From positions 1-64,000 of IMG/VR virus record IMGVR_UViG_3300028025_002046: a stretch of DNA of 64,000 bases; one strand, 5' to 3'. Shown here in pieces: positions 38,091 to 58,426 of this stretch (its first letter is position 1; every line of letters begins with the position of its first letter). The position numbers and the translations under genes were made by a program. Source of the DNA: a virus. The notes under the pieces were generated by a model. It had not been told where the DNA came from. It did not search any database and saw only the letters and a program-made list of their open reading frames with translations.

Positions 38091-38109
38091 AATATAGTAT
38101 AACATAACC

Positions 38110-38130
38110 TGTGGATAAGTCTGTGGATAA
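38110..38130 (-). promoter_or_regulatory. two DnaA boxes
   Basis: TGTGGATAA at 38110 and 38122. Confidence 0.7.
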
Positions 38131-38283
38131 CTTTATTTTTATTTTTTATTTGACAAAACACCAAAAGTGTGATACCCTCTAAATATTAGGATTTAGGGCT
38201 ATTATTTATATACTATATAGTATTATAATAATAAATAACTAATAAGGGCTTGCATTTTATTTAATATATGGTATTATGTATAT

Positions 38284-39282: not shown

Positions 39283-39489
39283 ATGAAAGAAAACGGAGAT
39301 GTTGAGTTCCTGGATCTATTCGATCCGTCTCAACCTAGATCAGATAAAGAGCTTATCGAAGAAAGACTCGCTATCTGCAATCAATGTCCATGGCTTCAGA
39401 AGAATTTGATGAAATGTAGACAATGTGGTTGTTATATGAAGCTAAAATCTACTTTGCGTCAAGCTAAGTGTCCTCTAGGACATTGGTAA
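39283..39489 (+). CDS. small Cys-rich protein (DUF6171-like)
   Basis: ERLAIC..CP..C..CGC.M..K..L....CPLG.W; leaderless after TGGTAGAAT. Confidence 0.7.
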   Translation: MKENGDVEFLDLFDPSQPRSDKELIEERLAICNQCPWLQKNLMKCRQCGCYMKLKSTLRQAKCPLGHW

Positions 39490-39582: not shown

Positions 39583-39759
39583 ATGTCATTTTACGACGAA
39601 AGAGCATATCAGAACAAAGATATCCTCGAAAAGATGTTCCTACAGGGACTTTCATCCAAACAAATTGCAAAACAGTTGCATATTTCGTATAAATTAGTCA
39701 ATCTCTGGCTTGTTAAGCATAATTTAGTCACTCGTAACTCAGAAATGAGTTTTCCATAA
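39583..39759 (+). CDS. small HTH DNA-binding protein
   Basis: LS.KQIAKQLHISYKLV..WL; SD AGGAG. Confidence 0.7.
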   Translation: MSFYDERAYQNKDILEKMFLQGLSSKQIAKQLHISYKLVNLWLVKHNLVTRNSEMSFP

Positions 39760-39854: not shown

Positions 39855-40109
39855 TACCTGGCAAAATAGCAAATCTGAAAAAATTTTTATTTTCCATATT
39901 GGAGAAAATCTGAATATTTTGAATAAGTGTATGATACATACCCTAGGGTAGTGCTACCAGGGTTTCGTAGTGAGCACACATCCCCCTACTACCAGCTAAA
40001 TACAGAGCTTCGATCTGTTATCAATTCGTTACACAAATAAGCGTGTTTGTGCTTGCTAAATGTCTGCCTACTACCCTATAATTAATACATAAAGAGAAAA
40101 GGAAAACAA

Positions 40110-40283
40110 ATGACTAAGGTTCTATCGGTTCTATCACTAATCGCTCACGCAGTAGCATTTCTAGTTGCTGTCTATGTAATGGTTCTAGACAAAGAAGGTA
40201 ACTATGGTTATCTACTTGTTTTGGCAACCTTCGTTACCCTGCCAGTAACCATAATTCTAGTAGCAAACAAACTAAGCAAGTAA
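40110..40283 (+). CDS. 57-aa two-TM membrane protein
   Basis: SD AAAGGAAA; hydrophobic. Confidence 0.7.
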   Translation: MTKVLSVLSLIAHAVAFLVAVYVMVLDKEGNYGYLLVLATFVTLPVTIILVANKLSK

Positions 40284-40293
40284 AGGAAAACAA

Positions 40294-40419
40294 ATGAGCA
40301 ATTTCAAACTATACCTATACACCGTTGATGGCGATGCCGTTACCTCAATGATTCACGTTGATGATGTTGAAGAATTCTTGCTTGAACATCCTGATGCCGT
40401 GCTAACTAACCGTAGATAG
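40294..40419 (+). CDS. 41-aa protein, paralog of 41494-41631
   Basis: YTVDGDAV..EFL.EHP.AV.TN. Confidence 0.75.
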   Translation: MSNFKLYLYTVDGDAVTSMIHVDDVEEFLLEHPDAVLTNRR

Positions 40420-40449
40420 TTATCCACAGGATAGCAATAGTTATCCACA
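40420..40449 (+). promoter_or_regulatory. DnaA box pair
   Basis: TTATCCACA at 40420 and 40441. Confidence 0.75.
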
Positions 40450-40531
40450 GGCGGTACCCAAAAATAACGGTTTGGTAACGAAACGTGTTATGTGTCGTTA
40501 TAATGTCTGCCTATGTGCTTATAATTGACCT

Positions 40532-40681
40532 ATGAACGAAATCAAATGTGTAGTATGTGAAGACAAAGCAACCGAACTAGCCCTTGATGTTTGGGGAGCA
40601 GACTTAGAGATTTGCGACAAGCAAGAGTGCTATGACGAAATTGCTGATGGTGATTGGATACACACAAAGCCACTGGCATAA
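40532..40681 (+). CDS. 49-aa Cys-containing acidic protein
   Basis: leaderless 6 nt after TATAAT; CVVC..CDKQEC. Confidence 0.7.
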   Translation: MNEIKCVVCEDKATELALDVWGADLEICDKQECYDEIADGDWIHTKPLA

Positions 40682-40728
40682 TGTCTGCCCTATCAACTAA
40701 ACTAATAACATCTAACAAAGGAAACTAA

Positions 40729-40851
40729 ATGGCTAACTACTCAGTATCAAGATTCAACGAACTAATGCGTATCGCTAAGAGTGATGAGTATATGAGTGAG
40801 AGTGAGTTCAATGAACTAATGGCTATCTTCAAGATTCGTGGGTATCACTAA
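40729..40851 (+). CDS. 40-aa protein, paralog of 42806-42928
   Basis: MANYSVSRFNELMRIAKSDEYMSESEFNEL..KIRGYH. Confidence 0.8.
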   Translation: MANYSVSRFNELMRIAKSDEYMSESEFNELMAIFKIRGYH

Positions 40852-40913
40852 TGGTTGAATGGATCATCTACCTATTTGGCTTATGGCTAATAGCGGTTAT
40901 TCTTACTCAGTAA
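40851..40913 (+). CDS. 20-aa hydrophobic micropeptide
   Basis: TAATG coupling; MVEWIIYLFGLWLIAVILTQ. Confidence 0.55.
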   Translation: MVEWIIYLFGLWLIAVILTQ

Positions 40914-41050
40914 ACTAATCGGCGTGTCGTCTTGACAAATGCCCCCGAAAGGGGGTACCAAAAATAACGGTTTGATAACGACACTACGATATGACTTGCA
41001 TAATGTCTGACCCTGTGCTTATAATTGAGGTATAAAGAAAGAGGTTCCAA

Positions 41051-41332
41051 ATGACTTACTACAACTACCGCCAAAACAACTCGGGTGGCTCGTTCTCTGA
41101 CCCTGCCCTAAATGTTGTCGTCAAGGCAAATAGCCCTGCTGAGGCAGATGCGATTGCCATCACTAAGGGTATCTACTTTGACCCTGAGTTTGAGATTGAT
41201 TGCGATTGCTGTGGTAACCGCTGGTATCCTGCTACTGAATACACTGCCTCAGATACCATTCCTGCTGTATCAGATTGGGATTGCCAATGGGCTATCTCTG
41301 ATGGTGTGTTTGCTCAGATAGTTGTTGAGTAG
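41051..41332 (+). CDS. hypothetical phage protein (QNNSGG / DC.CCG.RW motifs)
   Basis: motifs recurrent in phage early genes; SD GAGG. Confidence 0.8.
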   Translation: MTYYNYRQNNSGGSFSDPALNVVVKANSPAEADAIAITKGIYFDPEFEIDCDCCGNRWYPATEYTASDTIPAVSDWDCQWAISDGVFAQIVVE

Positions 41333-41493
41333 GGGAAACCCTACTTGATACACACCTAAAAATGTGGGTACCCAAAAATAACGGTTTGATAACGAAGCTT
41401 AATAAATGTGTAAAATACGGCGTGTCGCTACCTAAAATGTCATACCCCCTTGCTATGCTTACAGGGTAAGCAAAAAAGAAAAGGAAATTGAAA

Positions 41494-41631
41494 ATGAAAA
41501 ACGAACTAAAGAAGTGGCAACTATTCGAATACACCATTGACGGAGATGCTGTCGTTTCGTCAATCTACTACCTAGACATTGCGGAATTCCTAAAGGAACA
41601 CCCTGAAGCAGTGCCAACTAACCACCGCTAA
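41494..41631 (+). CDS. 45-aa protein, paralog of 40294-40419
   Basis: YTIDGDAV..EFLKEHPEAVPTN. Confidence 0.75.
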   Translation: MKNELKKWQLFEYTIDGDAVVSSIYYLDIAEFLKEHPEAVPTNHR

Positions 41632-41649
41632 AAGAAAAGGAAATTGAAA

Positions 41650-41748
41650 TTGATAACACTAACTTTTGAAACTTGGGAAGAATTTGATAACGCTCTAAGC
41701 GGTATCACTAGCCTAGTAATCGCTACTAATCCAGACCCTACTAAATAG
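41650..41748 (+). CDS. 32-aa peptide
   Basis: TTG start after AAAAGGAAA; ITLTFETWEEFDNAL. Confidence 0.5.
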   Translation: MITLTFETWEEFDNALSGITSLVIATNPDPTK

Positions 41749-41780
41749 TTATCCACAACTACTTATCCACCTGTGGATAA
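41749..41780. promoter_or_regulatory. DnaA box cluster
   Basis: TTATCCACA 41749, TTATCCACC 41763, TGTGGATAA 41772. Confidence 0.7.
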
Positions 41781-41909
41781 CTTTGGTACCCAAAAATAAC
41801 GTTTTGGTAACAAACTTAAAAAGACCTACGATTTACGGCGTGTCGTTCCCTAAAATGTCCTACCCCTATGCTATGCTGAAAGCATAAAGAAAAAGAAATG
41901 AGAAATCAA

Positions 41910-42044
41910 ATGGCAGTAACAATCAAACTAACCCCTAGCGAATCAAACCTATTCAACTGCGAAATCTGTGGCAACCCTGCCAACAAGATGAAACTAATGA
42001 ACAGCGGTTACTGCCAATACACTTGTGCCAGATGTGCCAAGTAA
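41910..42044 (+). CDS. 44-aa zinc-ribbon protein, paralog of 43427-43555
   Basis: CEIC..CARC. Confidence 0.7.
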   Translation: MAVTIKLTPSESNLFNCEICGNPANKMKLMNSGYCQYTCARCAK

Positions 42045-42089
42045 AATGTCATAGCCTACTGATAAACTAAATATATAAACAAAAGGAAA

Positions 42090-42135
42090 TGAGCCTTAGC
42101 AAATAAACGAGTAATCGGTGAGCCTAAGCAAATAA
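42090..42135 (+). repeat. tandem TGAGCCTNAGCAAATAA element, copy 1
   Basis: near-identical 46-bp element at 43809-43854. Confidence 0.8.
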
Positions 42136-42167
42136 GTTCCACTAACAAAAAAAGAAATGAGAAATAA

Positions 42168-42431
42168 ATGAACATCAACGAAATTCGCGAACAAGGTATC
42201 GGTTCAAACTTCAAGGTTATCAACCAAGCAGACGGATACCAAAAGAATAACCGCCTATGGTTTGGTGAGTGTGTTGAGTGTGGTGAGAGAGTAACCAATT
42301 CAAACCTAAAAGGTGTTTGGGTTCACACAATAATCTTAGAGCGTGACGGCTTGTCTACTAGGTCTAGAGATGTTGATTACTGCCCTACCGCTCAAATTCA
42401 GGGTAACCTAGTTCAAGAGATTTCAATCTAG
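42168..42431 (+). CDS. hypothetical protein with CxxC
   Basis: ORF track; promoter at 42045. Confidence 0.7.
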   Translation: MNINEIREQGIGSNFKVINQADGYQKNNRLWFGECVECGERVTNSNLKGVWVHTIILERDGLSTRSRDVDYCPTAQIQGNLVQEISI

Positions 42432-42493
42432 GCAAAAACTTTTTGCGACACGCCAGGGATAACTTGACAAATCGCAAAAATTTTGGTACCCGA

Positions 42494-42509
42494 TCGAACA
42501 CTTGTTCGA
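42494..42509. promoter_or_regulatory. LexA (SOS) box, actinobacterial type
   Basis: TCGAAC-ACTT-GTTCGA, perfect match. Confidence 0.75.
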
Positions 42510-42608
42510 ATGTAACGATTAGGTTACGGAAGCTCAGAAACACCCCTAAATCTAACTAAAATGTCAGACCCCCCTGTTACAATGAATACATAAACGAAAG
42601 GCAAACTA

Positions 42609-42758
42609 ATGAAAAGAATTCACACAGTAATGGCGTTCCTACCAAACAAGAAGAAGGTTATTGACCTAACCTATGACGCAGACAATTTTACAGTAGAGCA
42701 AGCAATCAAGTCTGTGGAAGACAAGGGCTTGACAGTAATTTCGGTTTACACAAACTAA
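42609..42758 (+). CDS. 49-aa hypothetical protein
   Basis: SD GAAAGG; promoter at 42560. Confidence 0.7.
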   Translation: MKRIHTVMAFLPNKKKVIDLTYDADNFTVEQAIKSVEDKGLTVISVYTN

Positions 42759-42805
42759 AATGTCTGACCCTACTGCTAAAATGAAATCAAACGAAAGGAA
42801 GTCAA

Positions 42806-42928
42806 ATGGCTAACTACAATGTTGCGAGATACAACGAACTAATGAGAATTGCTAAGAGCAACGAATTTATGTCTGAAAGCGAATTCAACGAATTGGTTGG
42901 AATAATGAAAATTAGGGGATACCACTAA
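42806..42928 (+). CDS. 40-aa protein, paralog of 40729-40851
   Basis: MANYNVARYNELMRIAKSNEFMSESEFNEL..KIRGYH. Confidence 0.8.
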   Translation: MANYNVARYNELMRIAKSNEFMSESEFNELVGIMKIRGYH

Positions 42929-42929
42929 A

Positions 42930-42989
42930 ATGGAATTCCTATCCCTAGCCCTAATCGCTTTCGCAATCTATCTATTTATCAATCAGTAA
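42930..42989 (+). CDS. 19-aa hydrophobic micropeptide
   Basis: MEFLSLALIAFAIYLFINQ, same position as 40851 peptide. Confidence 0.55.
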   Translation: MEFLSLALIAFAIYLFINQ

Positions 42990-42999
42990 AGGAAATCAA

Positions 43000-43200
43000 A
43001 TGTCTGTAACTATCAAGCGTAATGTAATTCTATCGGTTCTAGCAACCATCTTCTTCTTCGTGGCTAAGTCTGGTCTTGATGAAATGGCTAAGTCTGGTCT
43101 TGACGGCTTGGGAATGTTCCCTTTCCTAATCGGTGGCTTTGGCTTTCTAGGCTTCTCTATCGGTCTGGTTATTCGTCTATGGGGGAATGAGAAAGAGTAG
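43000..43200 (+). CDS. two-TM membrane protein with in-frame 24-bp duplication
   Basis: TGGCTAAGTCTGGTCTTGA at 43061 and 43085. Confidence 0.7.
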   Translation: MSVTIKRNVILSVLATIFFFVAKSGLDEMAKSGLDGLGMFPFLIGGFGFLGFSIGLVIRLWGNEKE

Positions 43201-43203
43201 GAG

Positions 43204-43312
43204 TTATCCACACCCTACCCCAAGTTATCCACAGGGGGTACCCCCCGAACACTTGTTCGAATTTACGTAGCTTACGTAGCTCCCCCCCAGCTTTTTTCGA
43301 ACAAAAGATCGA
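43204..43312. promoter_or_regulatory. DnaA box pair plus two LexA-like boxes
   Basis: TTATCCACA 43204, 43225; CCGAAC-ACTT-GTTCGA 43245; TCGAAC-AAAA-GATCGA 43297. Confidence 0.7.
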
Positions 43313-43426
43313 ATGTAACGAATTGGTAACAAAATGCGACACACCCCCTAAAAGCCTATAAAAACTAACTAAAATGTCAGACCCCCCTGCTATGCTTACT
43401 ATGTAAGCAAAAGAAATGAGAAATAA

Positions 43427-43555
43427 ATGAAATACCTACTAAGCCCAGCCGAATCAGCAAAGTTTCCTTGCGACCTTTGTGGCAAGCCAGCAACTAACGC
43501 CTATGTAATGCGTTCAGGATTCGTTCGTTACAATTGTAATCGCTGTGTGTCGTAA
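43427..43555 (+). CDS. 42-aa zinc-ribbon protein, paralog of 41910-42044
   Basis: CDLC..CNRC. Confidence 0.7.
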   Translation: MKYLLSPAESAKFPCDLCGKPATNAYVMRSGFVRYNCNRCVS

Positions 43556-43616
43556 CGCTAAAATGTCTTACCCTAATGCTAAAATAAATTATCAAACAAA
43601 AAGAAAGAGCAACTAA

Positions 43617-43796
43617 ATGCCAAAGCCAAGAATGACCAAAGCCGAAAAAGCAATCGTGAAAGCGGTGAACGCAATTGTGTTCGCAAATCCAGAAATCCGT
43701 AATGGCGGAAAATTCCTAGACAGAGCCGCTTTCCAAAAGTTGCCAGACCAGACCCAGAAAATCTATCTGGATTTGGTAATCAACAAAACATTCTAA
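43617..43796 (+). CDS. 59-aa basic protein
   Basis: promoter at 43562. Confidence 0.65.
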   Translation: MPKPRMTKAEKAIVKAVNAIVFANPEIRNGGKFLDRAAFQKLPDQTQKIYLDLVINKTF

Positions 43797-43808
43797 AACC
43801 AAATGGCG

Positions 43809-43854
43809 TGAGCCTGAGCAAATAAACGAGTAATCGGTGAGCCTCAGCAAATAA
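43809..43854 (+). repeat. tandem TGAGCCTNAGCAAATAA element, copy 2
   Basis: matches 42090-42135. Confidence 0.8.
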
Positions 43855-43875
43855 AGCCCTAACGAAAGGAAAACT

Positions 43876-44037
43876 ATGACAGCCAAAGAAAAAATCGAAT
43901 TGCTTACTCGCAAGCACGAAAGAGGTTTGGTTATCTCTAACCTCTACTCTGCCATTCTCGCCTGTGATGAGGATGCCGATGAATGTGATGTTTGTCTAGG
44001 CTTGAAATACGCAATTCAGCGGATAGAGAAAATGTAG
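43876..44037 (+). CDS. 53-aa hypothetical protein
   Basis: SD GAAAGGAAA. Confidence 0.65.
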   Translation: MTAKEKIELLTRKHERGLVISNLYSAILACDEDADECDVCLGLKYAIQRIEKM

Positions 44038-44067
44038 TTATCCACAGGTAACCAAAAGTTATCCACA
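44038..44067 (+). promoter_or_regulatory. DnaA box pair
   Basis: TTATCCACA at 44038 and 44059. Confidence 0.75.
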
Positions 44068-44161
44068 GGGCGTACCCACCCCCCTAGATCATTTACGTAA
44101 CCAATTAAATACCCCCCAGATTATTTCCCATAATGTCCGACCCCCTTGTTATACTTATCGT

Positions 44162-44305
44162 ATGAACGATAAGACGACTTGCTACCACTGCCAGAAGAAC
44201 AACACCTACGCTTTGGCTACCCTAAAAAATGGCAATGTTATGCGTGTGTGTAACCTATGCTCATTTTACCTTGACGACCTAATCACCAACCTAGTAATTC
44301 TCTAA
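44162..44305 (+). CDS. 47-aa zinc-ribbon protein
   Basis: leaderless; CYHC..CNLC. Confidence 0.65.
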   Translation: MNDKTTCYHCQKNNTYALATLKNGNVMRVCNLCSFYLDDLITNLVIL

Positions 44306-44320
44306 GAAAGGAAAATCCCT

Positions 44321-44383
44321 ATGGATGACGACTATGTAGAATATGATGAGTGCTATGAAGAGCCAGGTGACTTCTTTTCATAG
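44321..44383 (+). CDS. 20-aa acidic peptide
   Basis: SD GAAAGGAAA; MDDDYVEYDECYEEPGDFFS. Confidence 0.5.
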   Translation: MDDDYVEYDECYEEPGDFFS

Positions 44384-44469
44384 CACCACCCTTCGGGGGG
44401 TACCCCCAGCTCCGCTGGGTCGTTTACGTTAAGAAGTATAATGTCTGACCCCCCTGCTATACTTGAGGT

Positions 44470-44661
44470 ATGAATTCACGAAAGGCTAACTCTATGACCA
44501 CTCCTAACCCTAACCCTAATGTCGTTGGCTATGTCTGCGTTTACTGCCAGAAACTCTACCTGCCAGAAGAAACCATCTGCCTAGATTGTAACGAGTATGA
44601 CGGAATGGTGGCTCTAACCAAGAACATCTTGGCTATGTTTGCTGACCCTGTTGTTTCATAA
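44470..44661 (+). CDS. zinc-ribbon protein
   Basis: CVYC..C..CNEYDGM. Confidence 0.7.
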   Translation: MNSRKANSMTTPNPNPNVVGYVCVYCQKLYLPEETICLDCNEYDGMVALTKNILAMFADPVVS

Positions 44662-44716
44662 TGTCTGTGGCTACTGCTAAACTTACCCTATAAACCCTAT
44701 CGAAAGGCTATCCCCT

Positions 44717-44812
44717 ATGTGCGATTGCGAAGACCGTCCTTGCTGTGGCTGCTACTCTATGGCTGACCTATACTCCAACTCTGGAGACCCCTATGACCCT
44801 AACAACTGGTAG
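44717..44812 (+). CDS. 31-aa CEDxPCCGC peptide
   Basis: SD GAAAGG; MCDCEDRPCCGC. Confidence 0.65.
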   Translation: MCDCEDRPCCGCYSMADLYSNSGDPYDPNNW

Positions 44813-44917
44813 GTAACTACCCCCCCTGGGGGGTACCCCCAGATCTAGCTCTTTTACGTTAAGAACTATAATGTCCTACCCCCAATGTATAATTGTATTA
44901 TCAACGAAAGGTAAACT

Positions 44918-45184
44918 ATGTTAGAAATCGCATTTGGAATGAAGCAGGTTCAGAAGAACTCAACCGAGAACCCTATGGTCGCTATGATGGCTCTGGAACT
45001 GGAAGACACTCGCAACAACCTAAGCGAAGATGAGTTTTTAGAGTTTCTTGCTAAGTTTGCTCTCTCTATCTCTGCTATGGCTATCTCTCAAACTGTTCAG
45101 TTGTGTCTTGATGAAACCACGCAAGATGAGTTGGAGAAAACCATTTTGGAACTAATGGAAATGGAAGATTTAGGTAAGGAGTAA
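44918..45184 (+). CDS. acidic helical hypothetical protein
   Basis: ORF track, SD, promoter 44870. Confidence 0.75.
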   Translation: MLEIAFGMKQVQKNSTENPMVAMMALELEDTRNNLSEDEFLEFLAKFALSISAMAISQTVQLCLDETTQDELEKTILELMEMEDLGKE

Positions 45185-45323
45185 TCTCCTACCCCCGAAA
45201 GGGGGTACGCCCAGCTCCGCAGGGCTGGTTTACGTAGCTAATTAAAAAGCTCCCAAACCTTTTTGCTAAAATGTCAGACCCCCTTGCTATAATTGTATTA
45301 TCAACCAAAAGAAATGAGAAATA

Positions 45324-45524
45324 ATGAACGACACTCCGCTAGTAATCCGCTCTAATGAAGTTGTAAACAACCTACGAGATGAGAAACTAAACTACGACAC
45401 CTCCTACGCAAAAGCGTTTGGTGCTTGCTGGGGAGTAATGACCGACGAGCAACGACTAATCGTTTTGGAATACTCGCAACGCCAAGCAATAATTATCAAC
45501 ACACTAGGAGAAGAAATAAACTAA
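45324..45524 (+). CDS. hypothetical protein
   Basis: ORF track, promoter 45270. Confidence 0.7.
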   Translation: MNDTPLVIRSNEVVNNLRDEKLNYDTSYAKAFGACWGVMTDEQRLIVLEYSQRQAIIINTLGEEIN

Positions 45525-45703
45525 TGATGACACGCAAAGACTATGTAGCAACCGCAGAAATTCTAAATTCTTATGTTCACAATTTAGACGCTCCAATTTT
45601 TGATTGCCTAGTTCAAGATTTTGTGGCTATGTTCGCAGAAGATAACGACCGCTTTCTAATTGATAAGTTTGAAGACGCTTGTTGGGGAACGGCTAGGGAG
45701 TAA
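45524..45703 (+). CDS. hypothetical protein (MTRKDY..F..DN.RF..KF..AC family)
   Basis: motif common in phage early genes; SD AGGAG. Confidence 0.75.
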   Translation: MMTRKDYVATAEILNSYVHNLDAPIFDCLVQDFVAMFAEDNDRFLIDKFEDACWGTARE

Positions 45704-45812
45704 TCCCTGCTCCCCTGGGGGTACGCCCCCACCCCTAGCTCGTTTACGTAACGCATTAAATTTACCCTAGATTTATTCCTAAAATGTCTTACCCCTGATG
45801 TATAATAAAACT

Positions 45813-45983
45813 ATGAAGAAAAAGAAACCACCACTAGGCAAGGTCGCCAACGCTACTCGCAAGGCTCACGCCAAGGAATTGTTCCAGAGCCTTTTACTCA
45901 ACAAGCACTTAGTCGTTACCCCTGCCAACCGCAAGGGTTCACGACAGAGCAACAACCAAAAAGCAATTAGGGAGAGTTACTAA
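45813..45983 (+). CDS. basic 56-aa protein
   Basis: leaderless; RKGSR..KAI.E motif. Confidence 0.7.
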   Translation: MKKKKPPLGKVANATRKAHAKELFQSLLLNKHLVVTPANRKGSRQSNNQKAIRESY

Positions 45984-46239
45984 TGGATGAACTATTTATT
46001 GTAATCAACGACAAGGGATACGCTGTTGAGATGTGTCTTACCGAGCAAGAAGCGTTAGAGTGGATTGCTAAATTTGGTAACAAAAACTATTCTATCGATT
46101 TGGATGTGGTGTGCTAATGAAAGTTTATGTAGTTATTGAGACTTGTTGTATGCACTTTTGTGGAGTATACAAGGACAAGGCTGAGGCTGATGCCTATGCC
46201 GAAGAGAATGACTATTCCGTCTATGAGTATGACCTTTAG
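45983..46239 (+). CDS. two small coupled ORFs (about 44 and 40 aa)
   Basis: MDELFIVINDKG.. then MKVYVVIETCC..GVY; TAATG overlaps. Confidence 0.55.
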
Positions 46240-46288
46240 TGTCATACCCTCACGCTATAATTGAAACACCCTAACGAAAGAGAAACTA

Positions 46289-46756
46289 ATGAAAGCAATT
46301 ATCGAATCTAACTGTGTTTGTGAACCAGACGAAGAAAACCCTGAAAGCCTAAATTGCTACGGTGACTGCTGGGAATGGCAGAAAGAAGACGTTCAGTGGA
46401 TTATCGGTGAATGGGCAACTAAGAATGAAGTAGCCGAAGGACAGCCAATTCTAATTACTGGCACAAACATGAACTGGAACCATGTTTCAGGCTGGGCAAC
46501 CGCAACACCAGAAACCATTCTCGATAAACTAACCTTGAACGGTGATTTTAGTTTAGAGTTTGACTTTGACCCTGATGAAAATACTTTCAATGTTGTTCGT
46601 CGTTCTCACGATGAAATGGGAGCGTTGTTTACTTTTGTAATCATGGAGCCATGCAACCAGTGTGGAGTAGGAATTCCACGAGAGATTTATAACGAAGAAC
46701 TAGGCATGTGTCTTGAATGTTCAAATGCTTACTTCAACCATGAGGATGAAGAATGA
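46289..46756 (+). CDS. acidic Cys-containing hypothetical protein
   Basis: ORF track; promoter 46238. Confidence 0.75.
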   Translation: MKAIIESNCVCEPDEENPESLNCYGDCWEWQKEDVQWIIGEWATKNEVAEGQPILITGTNMNWNHVSGWATATPETILDKLTLNGDFSLEFDFDPDENTFNVVRRSHDEMGALFTFVIMEPCNQCGVGIPREIYNEELGMCLECSNAYFNHEDEE

Positions 46757-46812
46757 TAGAGTTTGGAGTTATCCTAATAGCGATAGGTTTGGTTATCCTA
46801 CTGAATCAGTAG
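46753..46812 (+). CDS. 19-aa hydrophobic micropeptide
   Basis: ATGA overlap; MIEFGVILIAIGLVILLNQ. Confidence 0.5.
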   Translation: MIEFGVILIAIGLVILLNQ

Positions 46813-46912
46813 ATACCCCCCGAAAGGGGGTACGCCCTATCGATCAGCTGCTTTACGTAGCCATAATGTCAGACCCTAAATGTATAATGGTATTATCAAA
46901 GAAAAGGAAACT

Positions 46913-47632
46913 ATGTCACTCATTCGCTCTAAAGACCGTAAAGTTGCTAACCAAGTAAACAAGGCTGGCAGTCAGGCTTCAATGGCTAACACTTTTGGAT
47001 TACCTAGTGGCAAGGCTTTTTCCTGCCCTGGGGCTACCTCGGTTTGTGAGACTATTTGTTACGCTGGCAAACTTGAAAAGGTATTCAAGGGTGTTCGCAA
47101 TGTTTTGGTATCTAACTATGAGCAACTACTGGCAACCGATACTCTAGGCATGATTGCTTTGATTGACGAAATGATTCAAGACTTCAAGCAGGAATGTGAA
47201 AAGCGTAATGCCGATAAGTTATTCCGTATTCACTGGGACGGAGACTTCTTTAGCGAGGACTACACTAGAGCATGGAATTTTGTTATCCGCCTAAACCCTG
47301 ATGTTCAATTCTGGGCTTACACTCGTTCAGACTTTGCTGTTCCAATTCTAATTGACATTCCTAACCTAGCCCTATACTTCTCTGCTGATTCTGCTAACAA
47401 GACTTTGGCATGGGAACTAAAGCGTAAGTATGGTGTGAAACTTGCTTACCTCGCCAAAGACTTTGCTACAGGCAAGAGTGACTTCAATGAGCAACAGGAA
47501 AAGTCTGCTGTTCCCTGCCCTGAAAACAACAAGAAGATTCCAATGATTAGCGAAAAGGGCAGTGCTTGCGTGATGTGTTCGCAGTGTGTGTTTGCTCGCA
47601 ATGACATTCTGTTTAGTGCTACTAAAAAGTAG
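46913..47632 (+). CDS. GP88-family protein (radical-SAM-like, phage gene 88)
   Basis: FGLP..SCPGAT..C..ICYA, FRIHWDGDFF, FWAYTR, C-terminal CP..C..C..C. Confidence 0.8.
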   Translation: MSLIRSKDRKVANQVNKAGSQASMANTFGLPSGKAFSCPGATSVCETICYAGKLEKVFKGVRNVLVSNYEQLLATDTLGMIALIDEMIQDFKQECEKRNADKLFRIHWDGDFFSEDYTRAWNFVIRLNPDVQFWAYTRSDFAVPILIDIPNLALYFSADSANKTLAWELKRKYGVKLAYLAKDFATGKSDFNEQQEKSAVPCPENNKKIPMISEKGSACVMCSQCVFARNDILFSATKK

Positions 47633-47774
47633 TGCTAGGCAGGGTACCCCCCACCCCATAGCTGCTTTACGTTACGATGCTAAAATGTCCTACCCCCCCT
47701 GTATAATATATACATAAGCAGGAAACGCAGCCCCCAAACAGAAAAAAATAATTGAACAAGTTTGAAAAATGTGC

Positions 47775-47803
47775 TTGACAATCTCCTGCTTATGCCTTAT
47801 AAT
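47775..47803 (+). promoter_or_regulatory. consensus sigmaA promoter
   Basis: TTGACA-17-TATAAT. Confidence 0.8.
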
Positions 47804-47852
47804 AGATACATAAGCAAAAATGTTTATGTAAACCGAATAGAAAGAAGCAAAA

Positions 47853-47999
47853 ATGACCGAAGTTACTGTTGGCTCACAGTTCGCAACCCAGAAGTCTGGC
47901 GTTGTTGGTATTGTTCAGGAAGTTGTAATCAACAAGAACGGCTCTCAGCGTGTTCGCCTTGATGTAAACGGAACTGACCGCTGGACTACTGTAAAGTAA
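47853..47999 (+). CDS. 48-aa beta (SH3-like) protein
   Basis: MTEVTVGSQFATQKSGVVGIVQEV..RWTTVK. Confidence 0.75.
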   Translation: MTEVTVGSQFATQKSGVVGIVQEVVINKNGSQRVRLDVNGTDRWTTVK

Positions 48000-48005
48000 T
48001 TCACC

Positions 48006-48033
48006 AATCCTGAGTATGATTTCAAACTGCTCA
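48006..48033 (+). ncRNA. H-type pseudoknot element
   Basis: AATC-CTGAGTAT-GATT..AAAC-TGCTC; homologs at 48606, 48687, 50855. Confidence 0.6.
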
Positions 48034-48162
48034 CAACATTGTAAATAGGTTCGTTATCCATAATTGTGGCTCGTAGAGATAACCAATAAGCACCCACTCC
48101 CTATCTATAATGTCTTACCCCCACGCTATAATAGAGTTACAACCCAAACAAAGGAAGATAAA

Positions 48163-48600
48163 ATGGCAAGAGCCGTATCAGTAAAAATCCCAACTATCAA
48201 AGTCATTGAGATGATTGAGAACAAGTTGGCAGAGATGAACAAGGTAGTCAAGGAATACCCTGCCCTACTAGCAACCTACAACAAGGCTAACAAGGAATAC
48301 ACCAAAGCCCTTGCTGAGTTGGTTGGCAAGAACTCTAACAAGATTGTTGCTTATCGTGATTTCGATTGGACTAGCGACCAGATTGCTCTGTCTAGCGACT
48401 ATCGTGGCTCTGCCCAGATTTATGTTGGCAAGGGTCTAACAAGCAAGATTGGCGACAAGCCAGAAAAGCCAGAAGACCCAGACAACTACACTTTCAAGCA
48501 GAACTTAGAGCAGTTGGAAAAGACCTTGAAGTTGCTTCGTATGACCGAACAGGAAAGCGTTTCTGCCTCAACCTACAACTCTGTCTTAGACCTAATCTAA
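48163..48600 (+). CDS. coiled-coil hypothetical protein
   Basis: SD AAGGAAG; promoter 48109. Confidence 0.8.
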   Translation: MARAVSVKIPTIKVIEMIENKLAEMNKVVKEYPALLATYNKANKEYTKALAELVGKNSNKIVAYRDFDWTSDQIALSSDYRGSAQIYVGKGLTSKIGDKPEKPEDPDNYTFKQNLEQLEKTLKLLRMTEQESVSASTYNSVLDLI

Positions 48601-48605
48601 GATAA

Positions 48606-48762
48606 GCACCTAAGCAAGTGTCTAAAAGGCTTAGTAAACACCTTACTCTCTGTTGCTCGCAAGGGTATTCATAATAAGGTTTTTATACACCTAAGCAAGT
48701 GTCTAAACTGCTTACAATCCCCCTGTGAAGTATCTGGATAGATACTGGTTAGCAGGGGGATT
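48606..48762 (+). ncRNA. structured intergenic RNA: two pseudoknots plus terminal hairpin
   Basis: CACCTAAGCAAGTGTCTAAA..GCTTA twice; AATCCCCCTG/CAGGGGGATT stem. Confidence 0.5.
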
Positions 48763-48869
48763 CTTGCTACCCCAGGAGCTGGGGGTACCCCCCCTACCCA
48801 CTAAGCCCTTTACGTTATAATGTCTTACCCCCCTGTTATAATTGACCTATCACAAAGAAAAGGAAAACT

Positions 48870-49508
48870 ATGAAACACGAAACAACCCTTTACACCTACA
48901 CCAACAAAGCCTATGTTACTGAGTATGGCGATTTCGCAGCCGAAGGCTCTTGCCTTACTTTTGATTCTTCACTACTCTCTAACTCACAATGGCAGTTAGT
49001 AGATGAGTTGCCAGATTCACAAAAGTTTGAGTATGTCTTGGCTATCCTTGACGGAGAAGAAGATGTTATTCGTGAGATTGAAAGCGAGAATAAATAATGT
49101 TTGATGATGTAATCGCTATGGACATAGTGGAACAACTAACCGAAGAACAACTAGACCAACTAATCGCAATACTAGAAGGAGCAGGTTACTAATGTTTATT
49201 CCAAACTTAGCAATACTACTAGACGAAATCAAACAGGCAGAGAAATCTTCCAAACTTGAAGGTGTTGTGTCTTACGCTAGTGGCTATGAAGATGGCTTGC
49301 GTATGGCATTAGACATTTTGGAAGGAAGGGTAGAGTAATGGAAAAGATTACTGTTAGTCTTAGGTTTGAATACTACCCTGAAGAAGACCACGCAGAATTG
49401 TTTGAAGACATGACTGAAGATGAAATGATTCGCTATGCTAAAGAAATGGCTTGTGAAGATATAGTCAGTGGAGATGTTTGGGAATGGCTAGAAGTTTCGG
49501 TAGAGTAA
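48870..49508 (+). CDS. operon of four small acidic ORFs
   Basis: 48870-49097 in ORF track, then MFDDVIAM.., MFIPNLAI.., MEKITVSL.., closely coupled. Confidence 0.65.
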
Positions 49509-49558
49509 AATGTCAGACCCTACCAGTATAATTAGACTATCAACGAAAGGAAACACTA

Positions 49559-50050
49559 ATGGGAACTCGTAATCTAACTAAGGTAATTGACAAAGACGGA
49601 GTAACTAAGGTTGCTCAATACGGACAATGGGACGGCTACCCTAGCGGACAGGGTATCAACGCTCTTCTACACGCCTACAATCACAGGCAGATTGAAAGCA
49701 AGTTGCCTAGACTACACTTTCTAACCGACAGCGAGATTGAGAACATCAACTCACTACTATCGGCAAGCGGACAGCCAATTAGCGAAGTCTATCCTACCCT
49801 ATCTCGTGATACCTGTGCGGACATTCTAGGCTATGTCGCTTGGTCTAATGATGTATTCCTAGTGGATAGTAGCGACTTTGAGAATGACGAATTGTTTTGT
49901 GAAGCAGTTTACACGCTAGACTTTCAAAAGAAAAAGTTTATCTCTACTTATGGTGGACACACCTTAGAGTTTGAGTTGGACGACCTACCAGAACCGAAAG
50001 AGTTTTTGGCAGATTGGGCGTATGAACTAAATCCTGGTGTGGTGGGCTAA
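49559..50050 (+). CDS. hypothetical phage protein (MGTR..QWDGYP family)
   Basis: N-terminal MGTR and Y.QWDGYP.G.G motif. Confidence 0.8.
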   Translation: MGTRNLTKVIDKDGVTKVAQYGQWDGYPSGQGINALLHAYNHRQIESKLPRLHFLTDSEIENINSLLSASGQPISEVYPTLSRDTCADILGYVAWSNDVFLVDSSDFENDELFCEAVYTLDFQKKKFISTYGGHTLEFELDDLPEPKEFLADWAYELNPGVVG

Positions 50051-50147
50051 CGCTCACCCCTAGGGGGTACCGCCCAAGATCCAAGCTGTTTACGACTATA
50101 ATGTCAGACCCCCAATGTATAATGGAACTATCAACGAAAGGGAAACA

Positions 50148-50309
50148 ATGAGCGAGTATGTAGCAGTAGACATTTATGACCGTATGGAGGCTAACGCCAA
50201 CGACCTTGGTGGTAGCGTTGAGGAAGACCTAGCAGAGATTCTTGCGTCTGGTGACCTAAGTGCTTTTGAAGACTACTTTGGCGACACAGACCCATTTGAA
50301 TTCCTATAA
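50148..50309 (+). CDS. small acidic protein
   Basis: SD GAAAGGG; promoter 50100. Confidence 0.7.
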   Translation: MSEYVAVDIYDRMEANANDLGGSVEEDLAEILASGDLSAFEDYFGDTDPFEFL

Positions 50310-50355
50310 TGTCCTACCCCACCTGTATAATAGAAACATCAACGAAAGGTAAAGA

Positions 50356-50835
50356 ATGAACGAGAATGAAAACACAGATAACATTGGCAATTTTGGTGAG
50401 TATAATGCTGTTCCTGTTGAACCAATAGTCCACCCTTCCCTAGCAAAATTGTATGACGAGATTGCTGACCTAAAAGAAAAGTTGGTTCACTCAACTACCA
50501 TTGCGAGCGAAGCACAAACTCGTTTGCGTGAACAGCAGAGCGAGTATCGTGAGAACGAGGGCAAACTTCAAGACATTCTAATTGAAGCACTTGGAGATGA
50601 AGAAATTGACAAAGATGTAGCAGACAAGATTGCCGAACTCTATGGTCTTGACCTACGCAAGGTATTCTCTATCAACATTCAGGTTGTTGTAAATGTTGAA
50701 GTGTCTGCTCCTGTTGGAACTGACCCTAGCGACATTGTAGATAATGTTGGCTTTGGCTATGGCGGTATCACCTACTCTGGTATTGGTGATTTGGAAAGCG
50801 ACCATTGGGAAATTGACGACTGGGAAGAAGTGTAG
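50356..50835 (+). CDS. acidic coiled-coil hypothetical protein
   Basis: ORF track; promoter 50308. Confidence 0.8.
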   Translation: MNENENTDNIGNFGEYNAVPVEPIVHPSLAKLYDEIADLKEKLVHSTTIASEAQTRLREQQSEYRENEGKLQDILIEALGDEEIDKDVADKIAELYGLDLRKVFSINIQVVVNVEVSAPVGTDPSDIVDNVGFGYGGITYSGIGDLESDHWEIDDWEEV

Positions 50836-50974
50836 GGTAAACCTTTCCCCTACCAGTGCTGGGTATCACTATAAACTACCCCCACATGGGCGTACCCCTC
50901 CCTGCCCCAAGATCCATTTACGATAGCTTTAAGAAATCTCCAGAAAATTCCCCAAAACTTTTTGCTAAATAGTA

Positions 50975-51003
50975 TTGACAAACAGAGTGTTTGCCTGTAT
51001 AAT
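50975..51003 (+). promoter_or_regulatory. consensus sigmaA promoter
   Basis: TTGACA-17-TATAAT. Confidence 0.8.
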
Positions 51004-51045
51004 TAGACTATACACAAATCAACCACTAACAGAAAGAGAACCCCT

Positions 51046-52062
51046 ATGGCTCACGAACTAGAACAAGGCGAGAATGGCGAAGTTGCTTTTGCTTCGCTAC
51101 GCCAACCTGCTTGGCACAATCTAGGCACTGTCTTTGAAGAGCAGGTCAATACAGCAGAGATGCTGAAACTTGCTCACCTTGATAATTGGAATGTTCGTCT
51201 TGAAGATGTAACCATTCCAGAAAACTTTGAGAGCGACAAAAACTATTCGTTCGTTACTCGCACTAACCCTTTTGATAACACCAAGAATGATGTTCTCGGC
51301 GTTGTCGGTGAGCGTTATGTTCCCCTACAAAACGAAGACCTATTTTCGTTTGGCGACAACCTGCTAGACGGCGGTGGTCGTTGGGAAACCGCTGGCTCAA
51401 TCAAGGGTGGTCGTCAGGTGTTCGGCTCTATCGCTTTGGCTGATAGCATTACCCTAGACCCTAATGGTCGTGCTGATAAGATTGATAACTATCTTCTAAT
51501 CAACACTTCTCACGACGGAAGCATTGCTATTCAGGCAAGTATCACGCCTGTTCGTGTTGTATGTGCTAACACTCTCAACCTTGCTCTATCTTCATTCAAG
51601 GGCAAGAAAGCAGCGAAGCAGACTTTCAAAATCCGCCACACTTCAACTGCCGAAGGTAAAATCGCAGTTGCTCGTGAAGCACTAGGTCTTGCCAAGACTT
51701 ACCTAGACGAGTTTTCTCTTATGGCTAACGCTATGATTGAAAAGGAAATCACTAAGGCTGACTTTGATAAGATTGTCGCTCTTGCTTACCCTGCTCCTGA
51801 AAAAGACGCTAAGGGTTCATTCAAGAAATACGACAGCAAGATTGACCTGCTAAACGACATTTATGTTGGGCAATTCAATGACACCATTTCTGGAACTGCT
51901 TGGGGAGCATACAACGCTCTAACCGAACGCCTAGACTGGTATCGCTCTGCTCGTGGTGGAAGCAACGAGAGTATCTACGCTTCTGCTTCTGGCTTTGACC
52001 CTGTAATCAACGCAGAGAAGAACCGCTTGATGAAGATTGTTCAACAGGTTGTAATGGCGTAA
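51046..52062 (+). CDS. DUF932 / TIGR03299-family phage-plasmid protein
   Basis: PAWH.LG, Y.PLQN, ETAGS..GGR, SHDGS, TPVRVVCANTL, IRHT, GTAWGAYNA.TE. Confidence 0.9.
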   Translation: MAHELEQGENGEVAFASLRQPAWHNLGTVFEEQVNTAEMLKLAHLDNWNVRLEDVTIPENFESDKNYSFVTRTNPFDNTKNDVLGVVGERYVPLQNEDLFSFGDNLLDGGGRWETAGSIKGGRQVFGSIALADSITLDPNGRADKIDNYLLINTSHDGSIAIQASITPVRVVCANTLNLALSSFKGKKAAKQTFKIRHTSTAEGKIAVAREALGLAKTYLDEFSLMANAMIEKEITKADFDKIVALAYPAPEKDAKGSFKKYDSKIDLLNDIYVGQFNDTISGTAWGAYNALTERLDWYRSARGGSNESIYASASGFDPVINAEKNRLMKIVQQVVMA

Positions 52063-52209
52063 GCCATTCTCCCTTGCTCCTGGCAGTAAAATGTCAGGGG
52101 TATAGGGGGTACCCAGCTATCGATCTTATTTACGACACACCTTACGATATCCCTATAATGTCATACCCTACCCTTATAATAGATACATAACCCGAAGAAA
52201 GGAAAAGCA

Positions 52210-52395
52210 ATGCCTAAATACCAAATAGAAATGATGATTGAATTCTCTGGTGAGATTGAAGCAGACAACGAAGAACACGCAGAACAACTTGCTTGGACGA
52301 GTTGGGGAGATACAATGGATAGCCCTATCGTTTATGACGGTGTTTATTCAATTGAAGTAGAAGCAGTAGACGAAGAAGAAGACGAGGAAGACTAA
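52210..52395 (+). CDS. small acidic protein (EA.N.E.A family)
   Basis: ORF track; promoter 52157. Confidence 0.75.
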   Translation: MPKYQIEMMIEFSGEIEADNEEHAEQLAWTSWGDTMDSPIVYDGVYSIEVEAVDEEEDEED

Positions 52396-52640
52396 TGGGA
52401 GCAAGAATAAATCCAGACGACATTCAGTTTCGTAAAGACGCTGACTACTATATGGACCCTATCGGTCTAGCAGTCATCCTTATTGAAGAGATGATTGACT
52501 GGGGTATTGAACGAGACCGAATGATTGTTGAGAAACTACCAGAAGAACACATTTGGTATTTTGATGGTCTACTCCGTCGAACAGAAACTATCCTAGACAG
52601 ACTAGGTGTAGAGAACATTCCAGTAGTAGGTGATTGCTAA
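52395..52640 (+). CDS. hypothetical protein
   Basis: TAATG coupling. Confidence 0.7.
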   Translation: MGARINPDDIQFRKDADYYMDPIGLAVILIEEMIDWGIERDRMIVEKLPEEHIWYFDGLLRRTETILDRLGVENIPVVGDC

Positions 52641-52739
52641 TGAGTGATTGTATTGAGAATGATAACGGACGTTGTATGTTCTGTGGTGCTATAATGTCTG
52701 ACCCTACCGCTATAATTGAAGCCTAACCAAAGGAGAACA

Positions 52740-52913
52740 ATGTCTAAAACCTATCAAGTAGAATACAATGCTGTCTATTGGGTAACTGCCAATAGCGAAG
52801 AAGAAGCAATTGAGTTGGCTATTGAAGAACACGAACAAATGCCTAATGGCGATTGGGAAGCAATGATAGACCCTTATGACAGCGACAACTTCAACACACT
52901 AGGAGAGAAATGA
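52740..52913 (+). CDS. small acidic protein (EA.N.E.A family)
   Basis: SD AAGGAG; promoter 52693. Confidence 0.75.
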   Translation: MSKTYQVEYNAVYWVTANSEEEAIELAIEEHEQMPNGDWEAMIDPYDSDNFNTLGEK

Positions 52914-53833: not shown

Positions 53834-54007
53834 CATCCACCCGAAAGGGTGGGTACCCCCAGTTAACATAATATAGTTAAACTAAATAATTAATTACGAA
53901 AGCGGATTAAGATCCCCGAAATCTTTTCCCAGAAATTTAGCTTTTGCTATTGACAAATGAGGCGTTATGCCTTATACTTGTAATACAACCCAAAAGAAAG
54001 AGAACAA

Positions 54008-58412: not shown

Positions 58413-58426
58413 AATACAATTATATC

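Follow-up and report, generated by a model that had tools for sequence, protein, structure and literature searches.

So far, PafBC 'sigma adaptation' is known only from cells, namely from the response of actinobacteria to DNA damage. The in vivo motif of PafBC, tGTCgg(N10)tA(N3)T, belongs to promoters without a −35 element, at which the helix-turn-helix (HTH) of PafB contacts positions −23 to −28 and that of PafC contacts domain 4 of sigmaA; the sole base-specific readout is that of the GTC triplet, via R46 and R50 of PafB (PMC8635444). For PafBC to join promoter-bound RNA polymerase (RNAP)-sigmaA, its WYL domains must have bound single-stranded DNA (ssDNA) (PMC11804915). Here we describe an array of 27 predicted promoters of this geometry in a phage, the IMG/VR record IMGVR_UViG_3300028025_002046 (G000). 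The window, i.e. the whole stretch of DNA that was analysed, comprises the first 64 kb of this 94,588-bp contig, and the promoters, called TGTC-class promoters below, precede small genes on its + strand.

The pattern WAATGTC-N12-TANNNT is present in 26 copies in the window, all of them on the + strand between 40058 and 52716, compared with an expectation of 0.41, and none of 100 shuffled sequences reached 26. The original prediction had counted 27 copies; the additional one, at 46240, is inexact and has TAGTGTC, with TAG replacing WAA. Throughout the 94,588-bp record, there are 26 forward, zero reverse and zero control matches, and none lies outside the array. The spacing had been predicted to be invariant, and a scan within the array bore this out, because AATGTC-N12-TANNNT was found 26 times, compared with zero to two times for the other spacings from N8 to N16. 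All 27 sites have N12 between TGTC and TANNNT.

The alignment of the 27 sites confirmed the core of the predicted motif and showed that the conserved block is longer than had been described, i.e. cTAwAATGTC-nk-ACCCy, followed by the −10 hexamer, an A located 7 nt past the −10 (conserved in 23 of the 27 sites), and the leader AT(A/C)AAC.AAAGGA. The upstream block thus spans 16-17 bp and exceeds the PafBC element in length. TGTC is invariant (27 of 27), and the two bases that follow it vary (TGTCTG 8, TGTCAG 6, TGTCAT 4, TGTCCT 4, TGTCTT 4, and TGTCCG 1). The TGTC element, at about −28 to −25, begins 16 nt upstream of the −10. The −10 is of the sigmaA type, with TATAAT in 16 of the 27 sites, and an extended −10 TG(n) is found in 12 sites. 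As predicted, a TTGACA-like −35 is lacking: at spacings of 16-18 nt, the best match does not exceed three of six positions in 25 of the 27 sites. The 27 sites thus have the appearance of hybrid promoters, which combine a housekeeping sigmaA −10 and a TGTC element in the absence of a −35.

Nearly all sites had been proposed to lie directly upstream of small genes, several of them leaderless. In agreement, 24 of the 27 sites have either a Shine-Dalgarno (SD) motif and an ATG 14-28 nt past the predicted transcript start or an ATG exactly at that start. Leaderless ATGs coincide with the predicted start at 40532, 44162, and 45813, the last of which is in frame with an open reading frame (ORF). At the remaining three sites, the gene either starts further downstream, at 78-93 nt, or follows a second promoter. 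This placement resembles that in leaderless actinobacterial mRNAs and therefore supports the predicted transcript starts. The promoters, as predicted from the sequence motif, are as follows (unless another genome is named, coordinates are those of G000, the first 64 kb of which are the window):

40055-40082, + strand: TGTC-class promoter 1 (gCTAAATGTCTGCCTA..TATAAT), gene 40110-40283
40498-40525, + strand: TGTC-class promoter 2, leaderless gene 40532-40681 with its ATG on the predicted start
40676-40703, + strand: TGTC-class promoter 3, gene 40729-40851
40998-41025, + strand: TGTC-class promoter 4, gene 41051-41332 (DUF7296)
41432-41459, + strand: TGTC-class promoter 5, gene 41494-41631
41850-41877, + strand: TGTC-class promoter 6, gene 41898-42044
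42041-42068, + strand: TGTC-class promoter 7 (AGCC variant), 93 nt upstream of the next gene (42168-42431)
42556-42583, + strand: TGTC-class promoter 8 (TGTCAGACCCCCC), gene 42609-42758
42755-42782, + strand: TGTC-class promoter 9, gene 42806-42928
43369-43396, + strand: TGTC-class promoter 10, gene 43427-43555
43558-43585, + strand: TGTC-class promoter 11, gene 43617-43796
44128-44155, + strand: TGTC-class promoter 12, leaderless gene 44162-44305
44436-44463, + strand: TGTC-class promoter 13, gene 44494-44661
44656-44683, + strand: TGTC-class promoter 14 (TGGC variant), gene 44717-44812
44866-44893, + strand: TGTC-class promoter 15, gene 44918-45184
45266-45293, + strand: TGTC-class promoter 16, gene 45324-45524
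45779-45806, + strand: TGTC-class promoter 17, ORF ending at 45983 with an in-frame leaderless start at 45813
46234-46261, + strand: TGTC-class promoter 18 (TAGTGTC, the sole inexact copy), gene 46289-46756
46861-46888, + strand: TGTC-class promoter 19, gene 46913-47632 (Pfam GP88, conserved in the family)
47680-47707, + strand: TGTC-class promoter 20, followed by the canonical promoter at 47775 and gene 47792-47962
48105-48132, + strand: TGTC-class promoter 21, gene 48163-48600 (conserved in the family, function unknown)
48815-48842, + strand: TGTC-class promoter 22, gene 48870-49097
49505-49532, + strand: TGTC-class promoter 23, gene 49559-50050
50096-50123, + strand: TGTC-class promoter 24, gene 50148-50309
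50304-50331, + strand: TGTC-class promoter 25, gene 50356-50835
52153-52180, + strand: TGTC-class promoter 26, gene 52210-52395
52689-52716, + strand: TGTC-class promoter 27, gene 52740-52913

With respect to GTC, the N10 spacing, and the lack of a −35, the sites would qualify as PafBC promoters at the level of sequence. The PafBC geometry had been the central claim of the original prediction, and the arrangement is indeed identical to tGTCgg(N10)tA(N3)T (PMC8635444), with TGTC at each of the 27 sites.

The same phage contains a second promoter class. Promoters that match TTGAC[ACT]-N16-18-TA[TC]A[AC]T number about 21 in G000, whereas we calculated that about 0.4 are expected by chance. Six of these canonical sigmaA promoters are located on the + strand between 47775 and 56177, and three of the six match the consensus perfectly (12/12). 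All six had already been listed and are real; the accompanying statement that such promoters appear only toward the right is incomplete, because 14 more are found on the − strand, at 28093 and from 58447 through 90665. The promoters on the − strand precede replication and nucleotide-metabolism genes as well as the WhiB operon. The canonical promoters of G000 include:

47775-47803, + strand: canonical sigmaA promoter TTGACA-17-TATAAT, 12/12
50975-51003, + strand: canonical sigmaA promoter, 12/12, upstream of gene 51046-52062 (DUF932)
53950-53978, + strand: canonical sigmaA promoter, 11/12
54503-54531, + strand: canonical-type sigmaA promoter TTGACT-17-TATACT with TG
55945-55973, + strand: canonical sigmaA promoter, 11/12, with TG
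56177-56205, + strand: canonical sigmaA promoter, 12/12, with an ATG 7 nt past the −10
58419-58447, − strand: canonical sigmaA promoter of the right arm; more at 58986, 59977, and 60220, and nine beyond 64000 (64897-90665)

One phage thus has two promoter classes, the TGTC class of the array and a canonical class that mostly serves replication genes. Both have the −10 and the start region 'nnnnnnAT(A/G)' in common and differ only upstream. The near-perfect TTGACA promoters in the same genome indicate that the host sigmaA uses a −35, and the TGTC class therefore appears to have swapped the −35 for another element. The − strand canonical promoters have TTGACAaa and often a TG before the −10, and some have an ATG 7 nt past the −10 (e.g. 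58447), i.e. are leaderless. One of them (28065-28093) is located in front of a gene of the structural region.

For comparison, we searched for the TGTC class in related phages. An exact scan of IMG/VR for AATGTCNNACCCNNNNNNTATAAT yielded at least 120 loci. Among the listed loci, nearly all have a G+C content of 35-44% and contain 10-17 copies of TGTC-N12-TANNNT on one strand versus 0-4 on the other. For the family consensus, every site matching the search pattern was discarded, and 706 distinct sites in 81 loci, among the matches listed, were kept. The resulting consensus is aaaTGTC-A(75%)-G(89%)-(T/A)-S-S-c...T-G-n-TAnaaT. In the listed related loci, the dominant strand has 482 copies of TGTCAG-N10-TAnAnT and the opposite strand has two, and any other spacing is represented by 0-11 copies; the loci overlap, so that the counted sites are not all independent. 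The TGTC class is common to more than 80 related IMG/VR contigs, with the rigid consensus aaaTGTCAG-N10-TAnAAT.

Two relatives, G255 (100 kb) and G262 (115 kb), are complete genomes with terminal repeats, and their structural and replication proteins are 45-80% identical to those of G000. Their TGTC sites are again located in one small-gene block, and aaaTGTCAG is followed by TGGC, ACCC, TCCC, or CCCn. The nearest relatives of G000 have kept ACCC and are relaxed at the two bases before it, and the relative G260 has TGTCAGACCC at every site. We regard G000 as the relaxed end (TGTC-nk-ACCC) of one continuous promoter family. The BE-cluster phage Beuffert has no excess of TGTC-N12-TANNNT (17 versus 12 in the control), and the cultured relatives therefore do not have this promoter class. 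At 19728 and 20284, G255 carries composite promoters, TTGACAaaTGTCAG-N10-TATA(A/C)T, which consist of a consensus −35 with an 18-nt spacer plus TGTCAG, and at several further sites of G255 and G262, a partial TTGAnA occupies the −35 position.

The original prediction had called for a comparison with actinobacterial recA promoters, and this comparison supported it, because candidate host lineages have pafBC, and TGTCAG-N10-TAnnnT is present at their recA genes. The host-side sample consisted of 251 genomes of the class of the freshwater Aquiluna-labelled metagenome-assembled genome (MAG) G001; it includes the unpublished genomes G010, G018, G027, G033, G035, G039, and G046, on which no specific claim rests. 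TGTCRG-N10-TANNNT exceeded a reversed-pattern control in most of the sampled genomes. Motif counts alone made no regulon visible in genomes of 1.2-1.5 Mb (10 versus 8 in G098, and 8 versus 11 in G252), and the argument is therefore based on intergenic sites that are conserved and on the genes that follow these sites.

Of 17 small actinobacterial genomes (1.0-1.9 Mb), 16 have TGTC-N12-TANNNT upstream of recA. For one order, in which almost all genomes have sizes of 1.2-2.2 Mb, the motif was found before recA at 25 of 41 recA loci, mostly as TGTCAGTGGC..cTGcTACCTT beside a LexA box. It usually has the form cTTGTCAGTGGCnCCTGCTACCTT, directly followed by the LexA box TCGAACAG. In their TGTCAG and in the TG that precedes the −10, these recA promoters agree with the phages, and one site of G262, TGTCAGTGGCGCCTGT-TATACT, equals a host recA promoter at 15 of the first 16 nt. 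The profile of this order is compatible with the acI/'Ca. Nanopelagicales' lineage. In the complete genomes G098 and G252, motif sites are conserved at orthologous positions upstream of recA, carD, a gene for a small LysM protein, and a DUF6504 gene that also has a LexA half-site. DNA damage induces carD and the LysM protein ChiZ in mycobacteria.

Tandem WYL genes are present in five of five streamlined candidate genomes and in two freshwater MAGs. The first of the two encoded proteins aligns over its full length with PafB of the PafBC-RNAP complexes PDB 7P5X/9FND (E 3e-32) and has kept the recognition helix RMFERDK, in which an offset-based chain mapping places both arginines. In a group of higher G+C content, sites of the ACCC type, TGTCAGACCC, are located before rmuC and the genes of an MBL-fold protein and a small Cys-rich protein. 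A conserved Cys-rich protein of 88-111 amino acids (HGCTARPxACGDC) that belongs to no Pfam family is encoded behind TGTCAGACCC-type sites in the freshwater actinobacterial MAGs G013, G134, G111, and G058, and it is possibly an unrecognised member of the host damage regulon.

Within the phages, we searched for factors that could read the element. A phage-encoded WYL activator had been offered as an alternative, and it found no support: no WYL domain (PF13280) was found in G000 or in 20 relatives, six of which are at least 90% complete. Likewise, Sigma70_r2 was not found in G000 or the 20 relatives, and MotA (MotCF) and AsiA had no match in G000 at E<=1. One HTH gene heads the array and lies shortly upstream of TGTC-class promoter 1:

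39583-39759, + strand: gene of a stand-alone LuxR/GerE HTH protein of 58 amino acids, similar to sigma region 4

This gene has its own promoter, TTGTAT-17-TATACT, and a strong SD motif. The protein is present in only three of 30 related records and absent from complete TGTCAG-type genomes as well as from two genomes that are at least 92% complete and have the flavour of G000, and it is also similar to the HTH of phage HNH endonucleases. Its distribution led us to reject it as a general reader of TGTC, and it is probably at most a lineage-specific modulator. The phage WhiB gene is located downstream of a canonical promoter (69001), from which the protein is probably made, and it is conserved in G255 and G262. 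WhiB-type proteins bind domain 4 of sigmaA, and their DNA contacts are non-specific and upstream of the −35 (PMC10243135). WhiA was rejected as a reader, because its binding site, GACAC (with GTGTC as complement), is incompatible with the invariant AATGTC. For two array proteins that are conserved in the family, no recognisable family was found; the ESM Atlas gave no family and PHROGs only 'unknown function'.

A host factor is the best candidate for the reader, because it would account for a core and a spacing that match host recA promoters and persist, with drifting flanks, in very divergent phages. We estimate the probability that the array promoters represent a phage use of the PafBC 'sigma adaptation' class of the host at roughly 55%. 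The heterodimer of host PafB and PafC would bind ssDNA, insert between sigmaA domain 4 and the TGTC element, and thereby switch on a block of small, fast-evolving accessory genes. The replication genes, with ordinary TTGACA/TATAAT promoters, would need no activator. The array would fire upon the appearance of ssDNA, be it from replication or recombination of the phage, from nuclease attack on phage DNA, or from earlier UV damage. The flanks of the G000 sites, cTAwAA and ACCC, would reflect a homogenised repeated junction module, possibly together with a phage-specific modulator. From the promoter sequences, we infer PafBC as the reader, gating by ssDNA, and the timing.

Several findings weigh against reading by PafBC. 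TGTCAG (and likewise TGTCRG) is present at only six of the 27 sites of G000, and a G at position 6 in 15 of them, and cTAwAA and ACCC, although strongly conserved, are flanks that the motif published for PafBC lacks. Candidate hosts show no enrichment of the ACCC/AGCC flavour, with 6 matches versus 6 in the control in five of the genomes of lowest G+C content, and the ACCC flavour is near zero in the streamlined order; the idea that the flavour of G000 mirrors a host regulon was rejected on these grounds. The extended −10 TG (12 of 27) and the perfect TATAAT (16 of 27) raise the possibility that sigmaA alone might fire the sites. The contig is about 88% complete, the tandem WYL genes were found in candidate hosts, a LuxR-type HTH adjoins the array, and WhiB as well as many family-conserved proteins of unknown function are present, any of which could be involved.

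A wider version of the PafBC reading extends to a large and abundant family of freshwater actinophages, which would use the PafBC ssDNA alarm as an on-switch for the accessory block, while the sites would also compete with host repair promoters. We consider this tentative. The accessory genes would then plausibly act in anti-defence or takeover and be on only when the phage replicates or DNA is cut. As a part of this version, the G000 lineage may have evolved the extended element cTAwAATGTCnkACCC, which would be read together with a phage factor.

An alternative that we regard as doubtful is that host RNAP is redirected, in the manner of MotA/AsiA at T4 middle promoters, by a non-WYL phage adaptor that recognises the TGTC block, so that the TGTC class would be a phage-timed middle class. 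T4 provides the precedent of a −30 box combined with a sigma70 −10, and the conserved block of G000 (16-17 bp) is indeed longer than the PafBC element. The adaptor would be made from canonical promoters, and WhiB with a partner, a conserved unknown small protein, or, in the G000 lineage, the HTH protein encoded at 39583-39759 would be the candidates. WhiB is located behind the canonical promoter at 69001 and is conserved in G255 and G262, but WhiB-type proteins contact DNA only non-specifically upstream of the −35 (PMC10243135). The stand-alone HTH, similar to sigma region 4 and LuxR, heads the array, but it occurs in just three of 30 relatives, is absent from genomes of the same flavour that are at least 92% complete, and resembles the HTH of HNH endonucleases. 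Many family-conserved proteins without known function would leave room for other candidates, whereas neither MotA nor AsiA was found in G000 and no WYL or sigma domain in G000 and the 20 relatives. In addition, an invariant core and spacing that are those of host recA promoters and common to highly divergent phages would not be expected for a phage adaptor.

It is improbable that the sites are promoters for sigmaA only, which would fire by virtue of their strong or extended −10, with the upstream block being the operator of a repressor or a shut-off factor (of phage or host origin) or the homogenised part of a mobile junction cassette without any reader, as in PeSL (promoter-early stem-loop) cassettes. 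Actinobacterial promoters often lack a −35. TATAAT in 16 and TGn before the −10 in 12 of the 27 sites are compatible with this explanation, as is the location of the promoters in stereotyped hairpin/GGTACC-TTTACG junction modules of a hyperplastic region with mostly unconserved genes. However, the perfect TTGACA elsewhere in the same phage implies that the −35 matters in this host, and the rigid spacing to the −10 is that of an element read together with RNAP. Furthermore, the retention of TGTCAG at N10 in more than 80 divergent contigs, with drifting flanks, cannot be explained by homogenisation inside a single genome.

That the sites are chiefly a sink, which titrates PafBC off host repair genes and blunts the damage response with transcription of the small genes being secondary, is very improbable: 27 sites per genome, multiplied by replication and with −10 hexamers better than those of host sites, in a phage with its own RecA and replication proteins, would suit a sink, but the precise placement before SD or leaderless-ATG genes (24 of 27) indicates real promoters, and PafBC joins only promoter-bound holoenzyme and needs ssDNA (PMC11804915), so that sequestration without transcription is hard to picture.

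Many of the TGTC promoters of G000 are part of a larger repeated junction, which consists of a GC-rich hairpin around GGTACC, 15-25 nt, TTTACG(T/A), and the promoter. Examples of stereotyped junctions are:

44380-44442, stereotyped junction
44810-44872, stereotyped junction
46800-46867, stereotyped junction
47630-47686, stereotyped junction
48760-48821, stereotyped junction
50040-50102, stereotyped junction
52090-52159, stereotyped junction

The junctions look like mobile regulatory cassettes and could shuffle small genes. Most genes of the array are not conserved even in close relatives. The array may thus be a hyperplastic region, in which regulatory cassettes were copied and homogenised by recombination, and such homogenisation would explain the additional flank conservation in G000 without a second reader. 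The array also contains actinobacterial LexA boxes:

42494-42509, perfect LexA/SOS box TCGAACACTTGTTCGA
43245-43260, LexA box with one mismatch
43297-43312, LexA box with one mismatch

The three boxes fall within 1 kb; they precede TGTC promoters by 50-130 nt and do not overlap the −10. According to our calculation, a perfect 12-base LexA match is expected about 0.008 times per 64 kb. The boxes are a small further link of the array to damage regulators.

The replication genes have activator-independent promoters, and the array may therefore be a delayed, ssDNA-gated class. The replication arm is the more obvious immediate-early class compared with the array, which had originally been described as a set of early genes; if PafBC reads the sites, delayed or conditional expression of the array would be no less likely than early expression. 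DnaA-box-like sequences of the type TTATCCACA occur in pairs at 38100-38135, in the divergent region, and at several array junctions, upstream of 40504, 41856, and 44134.

The G000 contig is linear, has no terminal repeats, has a G+C content of about 41%, and was estimated by CheckV to be about 88% complete. Structural genes occupy 0.2-38 kb on the − strand and are followed by a + strand block with roughly 75 small ORFs (38-57 kb). From 57 kb to the end of the contig, the − strand encodes ribonucleotide reductase, ThyX, RecA, the alpha subunit of DNA polymerase III, DnaB, and primase, so that the phage has its own RecA and replication proteins, and the same arm also encodes an M23/peptidoglycan-binding lysin, a PASTA protein, and a WhiB-family protein. 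An AT-rich divergent region (34% G+C) between the structural block and the array encodes an endonuclease VII-domain protein (38284-38733, + strand) and a Cys-rich DUF6171 protein (39283-39489, + strand).

In the phages database, no near match to the promoter array was found. The structural genes are at best about 67% identical to those of Streptomyces BE-cluster and Rhodococcus phages (a weak DNA similarity in capsid genes), and the proteins include members of the Pfam families GP88 and DUF7296. All relatives of the G000 WhiB that were found come from lake metagenomes or from MAG bins of lakes. A genome scan seeded with the single WhiB sequence of G000 gave no match, and an alignment-seeded scan mostly returned phage contigs mis-binned into unrelated lake MAGs. 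WhiB contigs of the phage family were binned under Beijerinckiaceae, Methylococcus, Polynucleobacter, Flavobacterium, Nitrososphaera, and others, an evident contamination of public lake MAGs by phage. Because of WhiB, GP88/DUF7296, the similarity of capsid genes to actinophages, and the lake-only WhiB relatives, we assign G000 to the freshwater actinophages, and its host is very probably an actinobacterium. Contigs of one freshwater metatranscriptome run match G000 mainly at 90-95% identity, thus represent relatives, and were not used as evidence. Freshwater actinophages that encode whiB are a known group, and the papers on them do not describe their promoters (PMC10914622, PMC10202952); phages have by now been isolated on cultures of 'Ca. 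Nanopelagicales' (PMC10202952). The original prediction had also stated that no such use of PafBC promoters was known in phages; in the accessible parts of the literature retrieved for RecA-NDp or PafBC together with phage, we found no description.

If the PafBC reading is true, G000 would be the first virus that plugs many genes into an activator-type, ssDNA-sensing switch of its host, as opposed to repression by LexA or a MotA-like factor. One temporal or conditional class of genes could then be found in hundreds of uncultured lake phages by a simple rule based on sequence, and pafBC-bearing actinobacteria of low G+C content, which are among the most abundant freshwater bacteria, would be indicated as hosts. 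The sites of G000, with their TATAAT −10, would then also be strong natural PafBC promoters for in vitro work.

Among known systems, the stoperators of cluster A mycobacteriophages bind the phage repressor, block transcription, and have no fixed spacing to a −10. They resemble the G000 sites in being dozens of asymmetric sites in one orientation across an actinophage genome, whereas the G000 sites are tied to a −10 at a fixed spacing. Phage switches controlled by LexA, e.g. those of coliphage 186 (Tum), CTX-phi, and GIL01, act via repression and are mostly found in temperate phages. They have in common with G000 that transcription is tied to the damage state of the host, as is proposed here for G000, which has one perfect and two near-perfect LexA boxes; in contrast, G000 has an activator-type promoter in many copies and is apparently a lytic phage. 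PeSL, as Arbiol et al. reportedly described in 2010, are mobile cassettes in hyperplastic regions of T4-type phages. Small, poorly conserved ORFs that are bounded by modules of hairpin and promoter, and that may be shuffled, are a feature of both, but the PeSL promoters are said to be ordinary sigma70 early promoters, whereas the module of G000 contains an activator-type element.

The middle promoters of T4, which depend on MotA/AsiA, have likewise kept the −10 of the host sigma factor and replaced the −35 by a box about 12 nt upstream, and they also form a separate class beside consensus early promoters, which is a temporal class in T4 (PMC2988021). Both factors are encoded by T4; in contrast, no homologue of MotA, AsiA, WYL, or sigma factors was found in G000, and its box corresponds to the site of a host activator.

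Compared with the PafBC (RecA-NDp) promoters, the predicted promoters of G000 are located on a phage genome, are 27 in number and all in the same orientation, and precede unknown small genes instead of repair genes. They have a near-consensus TATAAT, are relaxed after TGTC, and have the additional flanks cTAwAA and ACCC. In both cases, however, TGTC is located at −28 to −25, N10 separates the hexamer that begins with TGTC from TAnnnT, a −35 is lacking, and GTC is invariant (PMC8635444, PMC11804915). Leaderless or short-leader starts are frequent in both, and the TGTCAG of the phage family is that of the recA promoters of pafBC-bearing streamlined actinobacteria.

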